Shown in pieces: positions 219-3,316 of a stretch of DNA of 64,000 nt. The position numbers were made by a program, and so were the translations under genes. The stretch is from Candidatus Kerfeldbacteria bacterium (GTDB taxonomy: Bacteria; Patescibacteriota; Patescibacteriia; SBBC01; CAIJZX01): the NCBI GenBank assembly GCA_016193315.1, contig JACPSJ010000001.1, positions 406,723-470,722 on the forward strand. Direction: 5' to 3'. A model generated the notes under the pieces. It worked only from the letters and a program-made list of their open reading frames with translations. It did no database searches and was not told where the DNA came from. Every line of letters begins with the position of its first letter. The stretch's first letter is position 1.

Positions 219-1772
219 ATGCCCCCCACCCTCTATCGGAAATACCGTCCTCAAACCTTCGCTGAGCTGGTTAATCAGCAGCACATTCGGATTACCCTCC
301 AACAAGCACTGGTCCAGGGGCGAGTAGCACACGCCTACCTTTTTGCCGGACCGCGCGGCATCGGTAAGACGACGGTCGCTCGCCTCTTGGCCCGGGCGGT
401 CAACTGCCAGCGGCGCCAACCAGACGGCGAGCCATGCAATCGTTGCCCCACCTGCCAGGCCATGTTGAGCGGATCGGCTCTAGACATCATCGAGATTGAT
501 GCCGCCTCGCAAACCGGAGTCGATAATGTCCGCGAAAACATACTCCACAACGCGCGGGTCGGCCCGACGCTTGGACAGTTCAAGGTCTTCATCATTGATG
601 AAGTCCACATGCTATCGTTAGCCGCTTTCAACGCCCTGCTGAAAATGCTCGAGGAACCGCCGGCTCACGCCCTGTTCATTCTGGCTACCACTGAGGTTCA
701 TCGGGTGCCAGCCACCATCATTTCCCGGAGTCAACGTTTCGATTTTAAGCGTCTGGGCGTCCAAGACATGGCCGAACGTCTCAACCGCTTGGCGCAGCAG
801 GAAAAGCGTCAGTTGGCTGACGGCGTGGCCGAACGAATTGCTCGTTTCGCCCACGGCTCAATGCGCGACGCCGAAAGCATGCTCGGTCAACTCTTCTCCT
901 TCCAGGAGGCGGTCATCAACCGCGAGGTGGCTGATTTGGTGCTGCCGCGGTCGAACGAGGAAGTGGTAGCGGAAATCATGGCCGCCGTCGTTCATGGCCA
1001 AGCCGCCGCCGCCATGGTCGCTTTCCATCGCTACTGCGATGAGGGCGGCGACATTCCGGTCCTGGCCCACGAACTAGTCCTGGCCGGCCGCACGTTGATG
1101 TTGGCCTCGGTTGACCCGACCTTGTTAGATCAAGTGCTCGATGATCAACAGCCGGCGCACGTCCAAGAGCTACGATCGCTGGTTCGTCTCGGATCAACCG
1201 AACGATTTATCGATTTGGTCGAAGCGTTGACCACGGCCGAGCGGCAACTCCAACGCAGTACATTTTTGGAGTTACCGGTCGAGGTGGCCTTGATCAGGGG
1301 CGCGACATTCGGTCAGCCCGCGGATACGGACCGCGCTTCACCCGAGACGAAAACGTCCCCCGCCCGGCCGACCCCGCCCGAGCCGCCGGCCGGCCAGCCC
1401 AAACGGGCGAATGTCACAAAACCTCTGCCCCTGGCCATGGTCCAGCAAGCCTGGCAGACGGTTCAAAAAAAGTTGAATGGTAGCCAGCCAAGCCTGCGCT
1501 TGTCTTTACAGCAGGCCACCATCAAGGAGTCGAAACCCGGCCTGGTTGTCCTCGAAGTCCCCTTTGCGCTCCATCGCCAGCGGCTGACCGATCCAAAGCA
1601 CCGGCAGGTTCTGGAACAGGCGCTGTCCAAAGTCCTCAAGACGCCGTTCACCATTGAAGTAGTGACTTCAAATGGGGCACCACCTCGAGCAGTTCAGCCC
1701 GGCCCGGCGAAAAAAGGTGATCCCGAATCCGGCAGCGACCTGTGGGAAAAGATCGTGGCCTCGTTTAGTTAG
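219..1772 (+). CDS. dnaX: DNA polymerase III subunit tau/gamma (DnaX)
   Basis: ATG start. The N-terminus reads YRKYRPQTFAELVNQQHI, followed by a Walker A box GPRGIGKTT, a CxxC…CPTC zinc module and the SRSQRF motif, all typical of clamp-loader DnaX. Confidence 0.9.
   Translation: MPPTLYRKYRPQTFAELVNQQHIRITLQQALVQGRVAHAYLFAGPRGIGKTTVARLLARAVNCQRRQPDGEPCNRCPTCQAMLSGSALDIIEIDAASQTGVDNVRENILHNARVGPTLGQFKVFIIDEVHMLSLAAFNALLKMLEEPPAHALFILATTEVHRVPATIISRSQRFDFKRLGVQDMAERLNRLAQQEKRQLADGVAERIARFAHGSMRDAESMLGQLFSFQEAVINREVADLVLPRSNEEVVAEIMAAVVHGQAAAAMVAFHRYCDEGGDIPVLAHELVLAGRTLMLASVDPTLLDQVLDDQQPAHVQELRSLVRLGSTERFIDLVEALTTAERQLQRSTFLELPVEVALIRGATFGQPADTDRASPETKTSPARPTPPEPPAGQPKRANVTKPLPLAMVQQAWQTVQKKLNGSQPSLRLSLQQATIKESKPGLVVLEVPFALHRQRLTDPKHRQVLEQALSKVLKTPFTIEVVTSNGAPPRAVQPGPAKKGDPESGSDLWEKIVASFS
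1466..1472 (+). other. Slippery heptamer A_AAA_AAG inside dnaX, a putative programmed -1 frameshift site. The -1 frame stops 3 codons later (gtt gaa tgg TAG at 1481-1483).
   Basis: dnaX codons are caa(1464) aaa aag ttg. Shifting -1 at AAG gives K-K-V-E-W-stop. A stem, GCCTGC…GCAGGC, lies downstream at 1492-1516. Confidence 0.5.
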
Positions 1773-2431
1773 CCGCTTCGCGAATAGGCGCCTTTTGATT
1801 GCTGCCTGAGCCGGGCCAGGCCTCGGACAAACTCGGTCTTACCCCCGTGAGACGGATGACGAAGTTTTACCGTCTCCATGCCGACCGCGGCTAGAGTTTG
1901 ATGAGCGACGTTGCCGACGGCCACCACATTCTTAATTCGAAAGATATCCATCAACTCCTGAAAAAAGTCTTTCCCCAGCTCAACCTCGCGCTGATTCGGA
2001 GCCCGGTTTGATTGAACGCGACCCGGTTGGAACGGGTGGAAAGGAAAAGCAGACCACAACAGCGGCACAAAGCGAAACTGAGCCAAGGTCGACCATACAA
2101 TGGTAGCTGTCGGTTCTTTATGCACCCGGGTAAACTCTTTCGTTTTCCGATAGCCTTTCTTCTGGCCGAACATCGACAGTGGTTGTACCCCAGACAGCAA
2201 GATATCCTCGCTCATGAACGGCACGCCGGTCAGGCGGCTGCCTTGATACCCCGGTGCCTCGCCGAGCAGGAGTGTCTTCGGTGAAAAACGCTCGACTTCG
2301 CCGAAATACAACTGCAGATTGCGTCGGCGGATGACATTGTGTTTGTTGCCAGCGGCGTACTGATTAAAAAAGTTCCGTCCCGATGGCACTCGGGCGAGTC
2401 TATCGAGGAATCGACCAGTGGTGGACGGCAT
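1769..2431 (-). CDS. Uracil-DNA glycosylase superfamily protein (family 4/5-like)
   Basis: 220 aa. Motif A is LLLGEAPGYQGSRLTGVPF and motif B is HPSHGG, as expected for the UDG superfamily. Convergent 4-nt overlap with dnaX. Confidence 0.7.
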   Translation of the reverse strand: MPSTTGRFLDRLARVPSGRNFFNQYAAGNKHNVIRRRNLQLYFGEVERFSPKTLLLGEAPGYQGSRLTGVPFMSEDILLSGVQPLSMFGQKKGYRKTKEFTRVHKEPTATIVWSTLAQFRFVPLLWSAFPFHPFQPGRVQSNRAPNQREVELGKDFFQELMDIFRIKNVVAVGNVAHQTLAAVGMETVKLRHPSHGGKTEFVRGLARLRQQSKGAYSRSG

Positions 2432-2963: not shown

Positions 2964-3016
2964 TAGGACGCCAGGCTCTGAACCTGGTAATCTTGGCCTG
3001 AATCCAAGTCCTGGAG
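2964..3016 (+). pseudogene. Displaced, decaying 3' fragment of tRNA-Gln (positions 20-73)
   Basis: 49/53 identical to the intact copy. The substitutions are T-loop TTCGAAT to CCTGAAT (loses T54/Ψ55), T-stem CCAGG to CCAAG, and acceptor C to T. Confidence 0.6.
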
Positions 3017-3316
3017 CTCAACGTTGGAATCTTATTATACTGAGGGCGAAGGTAGGCGGGTCCCTATCCCGTGTGCCCAATGGCTTGGGTGGTCTTCGTT
3101 CCGAGTAAAAATTTACCCGCGCACCAGACCGGCGGATCCGGTCGGTGCGGGGTTCCGCTCCGCACCGTATCTTGTGATGCCGCCAGCTCCTGCTGACGGA
3201 GCTTCACTATAATCAATATAGATGTGGGAGGTTTTTCTTTGCATGACAATAATACGCGAATAGACTTTTTTGCAAACCATGCTATTGTGAATTTAGGCGA
3301 ACAGGAATAACAACTC

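Follow-up and report, generated by a model that had tools for sequence, protein, structure and literature searches.

The dnaX gene is recoded in several groups of bacteria by different routes. A cassette for -1 ribosomal frameshifting is common to the dnaX genes of nine proteobacterial genera (PMC3711429), transcriptional slippage operates in Thermus dnaX, and poly-A dnaX genes have been described in Chlorobi and others (PMC3711429, PMC5009743). Known dnaX slippage sites hold 9-10 A, and slippage is productive in runs of about 8-9 A or more (PMC3711429, PMC5009743). On the ribosomal side, A_AAA_AAG is among the most shift-prone heptamers (PMC5009743, PMC4066793); in E. coli translation systems the bare heptamer, without stimulators, causes a -1 shift at a rate of 14-16% in vitro and at a lower rate in vivo (bioRxiv 10.1101/2025.10.02.679949). 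Our full-text literature search found no report of tau/gamma recoding of dnaX in Patescibacteria. Here we describe a candidate site of this kind in the dnaX gene of a Candidatus Kerfeldbacteria bacterium, a member of that group. The gene lies near the start of a 64,000-nucleotide (nt) stretch of contig JACPSJ010000001.1 (positions 406,723 to 470,722), hereafter called the window; all coordinates below are positions in the window. Our tentative reading is that the site is lineage-specific, unoptimised and shift-prone, and that it would give a minor gamma-like DnaX.

Read in the zero frame from the codon start at 1461, the gene runs GTT CAA AAA AAG TTG AAT GGT AGC. The slippery heptamer A_AAA_AAG occupies 1466-1472 on the plus strand in the X_XXY_YYZ phase, Lys417 being encoded by AAA (1467-1469) and Lys418 by AAG (1470-1472), and it belongs to an A7 run at 1465-1471. 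On the same strand, the -1 frame continues from the heptamer as GTT GAA TGG and then TAG (1472-1483). This TAG (1481-1483) is the first stop in the -1 frame and ends an open stretch of 113 codons. The +1 frame meets a plus-strand TGA directly behind the A run (1474-1476), so that both alternative frames close at once. A preliminary description of this DNA had placed the heptamer in the dnaX frame and the -1 stop three codons on, and the codon start at 1461 and a direct reading of the -1 frame bear out both statements. The predicted -1 product comprises 418 + 3 = 421 amino acids (aa) and ends in QKKVEW. The protein would be cut short beyond domains I-III and the linker, within helix 1 of the tau C-terminal domain (DnaX_C). 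As predicted, the 421-aa product is gamma-like, retaining domains I-III and the linker and losing nearly all of DnaX_C. The gamma-like nature proposed in the preliminary description is thereby upheld, while the length becomes 421 aa rather than about 418. The A7 homopolymer is no assembly error, since the 1554-nt gene recurs without any difference in two further, independent Logan assemblies. Runs SRR12113422 and SRR12113390 derive from the same population. We also considered whether codons 308-421, open in the -1 frame, might hide an overlapping gene, and rejected this: the list of open reading frames (ORFs) has no entry beginning with a start codon in that interval, which corresponds to the GC- and Pro-rich linker.

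The gene itself (219-1772, plus strand) is dnaX beyond doubt, with a tau-length product of 517 aa, as had been described. The product is identical to the NCBI protein 'MAG: DNA polymerase III subunit gamma/tau [Candidatus Kerfeldbacteria bacterium]' (MAG, metagenome-assembled genome), which comes from an assembly with an 857-kb contig. It matches NCBIfam dnaX_nterm at 2.2e-109, and Pfam places DNA_pol3_delta2 at residues 20-179 (2.6e-40), the DnaX ATPase lid at 185-224 and gamma3/domain III at 247-363. We built an AlphaFold2 model of DnaX on 54 relatives. In this model the clamp-loader module of domains I-III (residues 1-362; 219-1304, plus strand) has a predicted local distance difference test score (pLDDT) mostly above 85, and Foldseek matched about 361 residues to gamma/tau chains of E. 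coli in solved clamp-loader structures (34% identity, E about 1e-29). A Pro-rich, disordered linker follows (residues 363-404; 1305-1430, plus strand), with a pLDDT of about 46-52 and without secondary structure; its length and sequence vary among relatives. Next comes the compact DnaX_C domain (residues 405-483; 1431-1667, plus strand), whose first helix, residues 405-422 in the predicted secondary structure, contains the slip site; beyond this domain, the model ends with another disordered stretch and a terminal helix. Pfam gave no meaningful match for the C-terminal 119 aa alone, and the sole match in a PDB sequence search with the C-terminal profile, to DnaA domain I, was not significant (E 0.63). 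The homology to DnaX_C was then established by profile comparison: hhalign aligned the profile of the C-terminal domain with the Pfam PF20964 DnaX_C region of relative P0057 at a probability of 97.5% (E 6e-12).

We next consider the elements that stimulate frameshifting in known dnaX systems. In the 25 nt upstream of the heptamer there is no stimulator resembling a Shine-Dalgarno (SD) element: the best duplex with the anti-SD reaches -2.7 kcal/mol, a value equalled by 57% of 25-nt windows in dnaX and therefore ordinary for this gene. The same absence had been noted in the preliminary description. For comparison, the SD element of E. coli dnaX forms an anti-SD duplex of -7.4 kcal/mol. Across the 48 long ORFs of the window, however, the SD signal at the gene starts themselves does not exceed background (mean anti-SD duplex -2.5 vs -2.8 kcal/mol), the start codons being those of the longest ORFs and hence uncertain. 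The missing stimulator is thus less diagnostic here than it would be in E. coli. A clear GGAGG precedes only three or four of these 48 ORFs. Several starts have TAnnnT-like -10 boxes immediately upstream (for example 9020, 11266, 16967 and 59669, and 35386 on the minus strand), a layout that suggests leaderless mRNAs.

Downstream of the heptamer, the minimum-energy fold contains a predicted irregular hairpin (1473-1525, plus strand; 18 base pairs (bp) in 5 segments, -17.9 kcal/mol). Its core stem on that strand, formed by UGGUAGCC (1478-1485) and GGCCACCA (1514-1521), begins 5 nt after the heptamer. Against dinucleotide shuffles the hairpin had a z of -1.49, with 17 of 200 shuffles as good, and against synonymous recodings with the codon usage of the genome p was 0.04-0.08, varying by window. 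The segment was also the most stable of 13 homologous segments (synonymous null, p 0.03). On this evidence the spacing of the putative hairpin is right and its stability is only marginally above chance (p about 0.03-0.09). The 54-nt segment of L082 (relative P0003) that is homologous to 1473-1526 folds at -15.7 kcal/mol with p 0.006 under the synonymous null and has no heptamer, which cautions against taking the 1473-1525 hairpin as a stimulator. The preliminary description had pointed instead to a GCCTGC/GCAGGC stem some 20 nt downstream. The complementarity is real: the stem (1492-1516, plus strand; arms 1492-1497 and 1511-1516, 6 bp with a 13-nt loop) has -10.8 kcal/mol when folded alone. 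With 19 nt between it and the heptamer, it is more distant than the E. coli geometry allows, and it lies outside the minimum-energy fold; enforcing it gives -14.1 kcal/mol compared with -17.9, so that it competes with the 1473-1525 hairpin. Rfam found nothing in or near dnaX.

The decoding of the two Lys codons matters as well, since AAG becomes slippery where one U34-type tRNA-Lys serves both. The only tRNA gene in the window is a tRNA-Gln. We compared 13 NNA/NNG pairs, and the share ending in A was greatest for Lys (AAA 0.57) and Glu (GAA 0.54), at a G+C content of third codon positions of 0.65. This codon usage gives a weak hint of a single U34-type tRNA-Lys reading both AAA and AAG.

We then asked how far chance explains the motif. 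The window has 57% G+C, and AAAAAAG occurs 19 times in it, compared with 7.3 matches expected from shuffles. Within ORFs, AAAAAA[AG] was observed 9, 12 and 9 times in the three phases, compared with 5.9, 4.1 and 3.2 expected from codon usage, and in-phase A_AAA_AAR in the 48 long ORFs occurred 9 times as against 3.2 under a synonymous-resampling null. In E. coli, by contrast, in-frame A_AAA_AAG is markedly depleted (PMC4066793); avoidance there and enrichment in A runs here are opposite behaviours. Among the nine in-phase A_AAA_AAR heptamers, only that of dnaX has a -1 stop within 3 codons, the others running on for 8-73 codons. Given the peptide Q-K-K and the codon usage of the window (CAA 0.42, AAA 0.57), the probability of the heptamer is about 0.24, and a -1 stop falls in codons 2-4 with a baseline probability of 0.10. 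Together these values lead to an estimate that heptamer and stop within three codons would arise jointly by chance in about 2-3% of such genes, which is unusual and not rare.

Conservation was examined in relatives, of which even the nearest in 5.8 billion proteins are only 44-59% identical. The slip site lies five residues past the invariant Trp412 in helix 1 of DnaX_C. None of the 53 closest relatives has Lys-Lys at the aligned position, which counts against strong programming. At the aligned columns the relatives vary and have polar or basic residues (QRT, QRS, QSS, RKA, QKQ), and many of them have a patch of KK or KKK where the linker ends instead. DNA was obtained for ten clade relatives by exact-protein look-up, and a metagenome scan with a clade-specific C-terminal profile gave only 2 loci. 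Anywhere after domain III, none of the 12 relatives with DNA combines a canonical heptamer with a -1 stop at most 3 codons on. In-phase A_AAA_AAR occurs in the linker-end patch of four of them (L082, L083, L091 and L092) and A_AAA_AAT in a fifth (L085), with -1 frames that run for 12-57 codons; L090 has the non-canonical G_AAA_AAG with a stop after 3 codons. The preliminary description had let its claim depend on orthologues sharing the heptamer and the -1 stop, and they do not: Lys-Lys is found in 0/53 and a canonical heptamer with a near stop in 0/12. A conserved cassette is absent from the clade as sampled. With the closest relative only 59% identical, this excludes an old, conserved signal and not a young one. 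Lys-Lys within helix 1 of DnaX_C is common in other Patescibacteria. The heptamers found there in a KK(H/Y)NHSL context (L002, L009, L014 and L070) were rejected as homologues of the site, because they lie about 4 residues further along the helix and owe their stop to conserved His/Tyr-Asn codons.

A wider comparison covered 80 other dnaX genes, mostly from Patescibacteria. With a region-wide baseline, near -1 stops followed in-phase A_AAA_AAR in 17 cases compared with 6.4 expected. We rejected this strong enrichment as inflated, because Lys runs of the linker typically precede x-Glu or His-Asn codons that give a -1 TGA or TAA whether the run is slippery or not. Non-slippery Lys-Lys sites in the same region past domain III therefore served as a matched control. 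A -1 stop within <=2 codons was found at 17/41 slippery and 17/63 (27%) non-slippery sites (p 0.09), and within <=1 codon at 13/41 and 8/63 respectively (p 0.018). Counted per locus, the near stops did not differ (14/33 vs 15/38). On the basis of these genes, dnaX recoding probably arises repeatedly, and the prior for any single lineage is low.

Several individual genes in this set deserve mention. Among Desulfuromonadales and 'Deltaproteobacteria' MAGs, the Desulfuromonadales-type L066 and L074 carry CCG CCA AAA AAG NCT GAA in the linker (dnaX codons ~409 and ~414), that is, A_AAA_AAG with a -1 TGA one codon on; with GGGAGGG 12 nt upstream, L066 looks like a textbook E. coli-type site. A near-variant, G_AAA_AAG, is present in L060 (dnaX codon ~414). 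In L006, L012, L015, L022, L035, L072 and L079, a run of A9-A11 lies just past domain III (dnaX codons ~363-401) and the -1 frame closes within 1-2 codons of it. The carriers are AT-rich Patescibacteria and Chitinophagales, and the runs are reminiscent of Thermus-type slippage sites, the enrichment being marginal with the matched control (p 0.02-0.09).

How, then, should the Kerfeldbacteria site be read? We lean, tentatively, towards a young site that shifts without having been optimised for it. Two Lys-tRNAs on AAA-AAG would re-pair one base back onto A-AAA-AA in a minority of ribosomes, perhaps about 1-10%, and the slipped ribosomes would read GTT GAA TGG and terminate at TAG, yielding the 421-aa gamma-like DnaX. 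The hairpin beginning 5 nt downstream may help, an SD-like element would play no part, and the efficiency would depend on the set of tRNA-Lys. Judged by the relatives, Lys-Lys looks like ordinary variation at the protein level, in a position that varies and is often basic, so that the site is probably young and not demonstrably selected as a programmed tau/gamma switch. The lack of an SD-like element, of conservation and of genome-wide avoidance of A_AAA_AAR weighs against strong programming. Three points pull against this reading. In-phase A_AAA_AAR is over-represented rather than depleted in ordinary genes of this genome, and for that reason it may not be very slippery in this organism. A tRNA-Lys(CUU), if encoded, would suppress slippage on AAG. 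Pulling the other way, the heptamer, the stops in both frames and the most stable hairpin of 13 coincide, which could reflect real selection and a higher efficiency. That last point leads to the possibility, which we consider doubtful, of a bona fide programmed -1 frameshift that evolved recently, in which heptamer and 3' hairpin shift substantially and the 421-aa gamma-like DnaX is used beside tau in the clamp loader. The elements indispensable in E. coli are all in place (an in-phase A_AAA_AAG, a close stop, a site after domains I-III) at a joint chance for heptamer and near stop of only about 2-3%; the -1 frame, open for 113 codons, closes exactly at the site, and the +1 frame closes too. 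The rank of the hairpin among its homologues (p 0.03) and the excess of stops within 1 codon of slippery Lys-Lys in the 80 other dnaX genes (13/41 vs 8/63, p 0.018) point in the same direction, and the absence of an SD element is less telling where gene starts show no SD signal. Nevertheless, Lys-Lys is missing at the position in 53/53 relatives and the 12 with DNA have no canonical near-stop cassette; the hairpin statistics are marginal, with L082 reaching p 0.006 without a heptamer in that segment; the matched control gives p 0.09 at <=2 codons and the per-locus difference is gone (14/33 vs 15/38); and in-phase heptamers are not avoided genome-wide. A broader version of the same idea, to which we also assign a rather low probability, would see here an independent, recent E. 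coli-type tau/gamma frameshift in a high-GC lineage of Kerfeldbacteria, placed inside DnaX_C, with only a 3' hairpin, in an organism that hardly uses SD pairing. It would be one of repeated gains and losses of dnaX recoding across Patescibacteria, many AT-rich members of which have A9-A11 runs with near stops.

At the other extreme, pure coincidence with negligible shifting is unlikely in our judgement. It would have a neutral Lys-Lys that happens to be written CAA AAA AAG, a Gly-Ser written GGT AGC, and a tRNA-Lys(CUU) that reads AAG, with essentially only tau produced. The variable aligned columns, the frequency of Lys-Lys in helix 1 of other Patescibacteria, the general over-representation of A runs in the genome and the lack of both conservation and an SD-like element all fit it, as does the finding that 27% of non-slippery Lys-Lys sites past domain III of other dnaX genes also have near -1 stops. 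In 1992, Tsuchihashi and Brown reportedly saw dnaX frameshifting lowered by added tRNA-Lys that pairs well with AAG (cited in PMC4066793), which we count on the same side. Set against coincidence are the codon usage, with its hint of a single U34 tRNA-Lys, and the combination of stops in both frames with a well-spaced hairpin, which is somewhat improbable. Moreover, all bacterial translation systems tested so far slip measurably on A_AAA_AAG (PMC5009743, bioRxiv 10.1101/2025.10.02.679949, PMC4066793). Transcriptional slippage of the Thermus type on the A7 run is very improbable. RNA polymerase would add or drop an A, and the edited mRNAs would end at TAG 1481-1483 or TGA 1474-1476 and give a truncated DnaX. 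Near stops in both alternative frames are indeed what has been described for Thermus thermophilus dnaX (PMC5009743). The run, however, holds only 7 A compared with 9-10 in the known dnaX sites, and it ends in G, which makes exactly the ribosomal A_AAA_AAG motif. Overall, the label 'canonical E. coli-type' that the preliminary description had attached to the cassette is not supported: the SD element is absent, the stem is misplaced, three codons rather than one precede the stop, and the relatives sampled do not share the site. Lacking an SD stimulator and conservation, and with a stem-loop whose statistics are marginal, the site is to be filed as a candidate and not as a canonical member.

If the young, shift-prone site that we favour is in fact used, it would extend tau/gamma recoding of dnaX to Patescibacteria (the candidate phyla radiation). 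It would imply that a gamma-producing frameshift is easily born, from one Lys-Lys substitution and synonymous choices, without an SD stimulator, and it would bear on the repeated reinvention of gamma by ribosomal frameshifting, transcriptional slippage and proteolysis. If it is not used, it provides a calibration point: by our estimate, about 2-3% of the dnaX genes of this clade would by chance have an in-phase A_AAA_AAR that is followed by a stop within three codons. At such a rate, motif-only calls of dnaX frameshifting in metagenome genomes need evidence from conservation or expression. The site is plausible rather than surprising, a fairly ordinary candidate.

The surroundings of the gene add some observations of their own. 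Convergent with dnaX, a gene of the uracil-DNA glycosylase superfamily (1769-2431, minus strand; Pfam UDG, E 8e-8) overlaps it by 4 nt at the stop codons. The ybaB/recR arrangement that follows dnaX in many bacteria is absent downstream. Further along lies an intact tRNA-Gln(CTG) (2860-2931); about 35 nt beyond it comes a partial copy of its 3' ~55 nt (2966-3026; 49/55 bases identical), and an ORF with a GIY-YIG nuclease domain (2615 to ~2860, Pfam E 1.7e-15) lies directly upstream of the tRNA. The arrangement looks like a scar left by insertion or integration at the tRNA gene.

Among the known systems, the dnaX genes of E. coli and Salmonella are the closest in layout. They share with the Kerfeldbacteria gene the heptamer and its phase, a position after domains I-III, a near-immediate -1 stop and a product without the tau-specific C-terminus, and in both cases a hairpin can be drawn from 5 nt downstream. 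They differ in having an SD-like stimulator 10 nt upstream, which is missing here, and a stop after 1 codon rather than 3. The hairpin here is irregular, weaker and statistically marginal; the site lies in the first helix of the sole C-terminal domain (DnaX_C) and not at the domain III/IV border, and it is not kept in relatives. The dnaX genes of L066, L074, L012, L015, L022 and L035 likewise combine a -1 stop with an in-phase A_AAA_AAR located past domain III. None of these sits at the position seen in the window: the L066 and L074 candidates lie in the linker in a KK-x-E context, where NNT GAA gives TGA after 1 codon, and those of the Patescibacteria are A9-A11 runs. With Thermus thermophilus the gene shares an A run and nearby stops in both alternative frames, whereas its run is A7 followed by G rather than A9-A10 and nothing points to slippage by RNA polymerase. 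In Caulobacter crescentus, gamma arises by partial ClpXP proteolysis of tau (PMC5009743). The outcome there is likewise a shorter DnaX without the C-terminal domain, whereas the route is post-translational, and no sequence feature here bears on it. Finally, some A_AAA_AAG -1 frameshift sites of IS3-family insertion sequences function without an SD element, their sole stimulator being a 3' stem-loop (PMC4066793). The heptamer is the same, whereas there two ORFs are fused into a longer transposase and here the shift would truncate the product of a chromosomal housekeeping gene.

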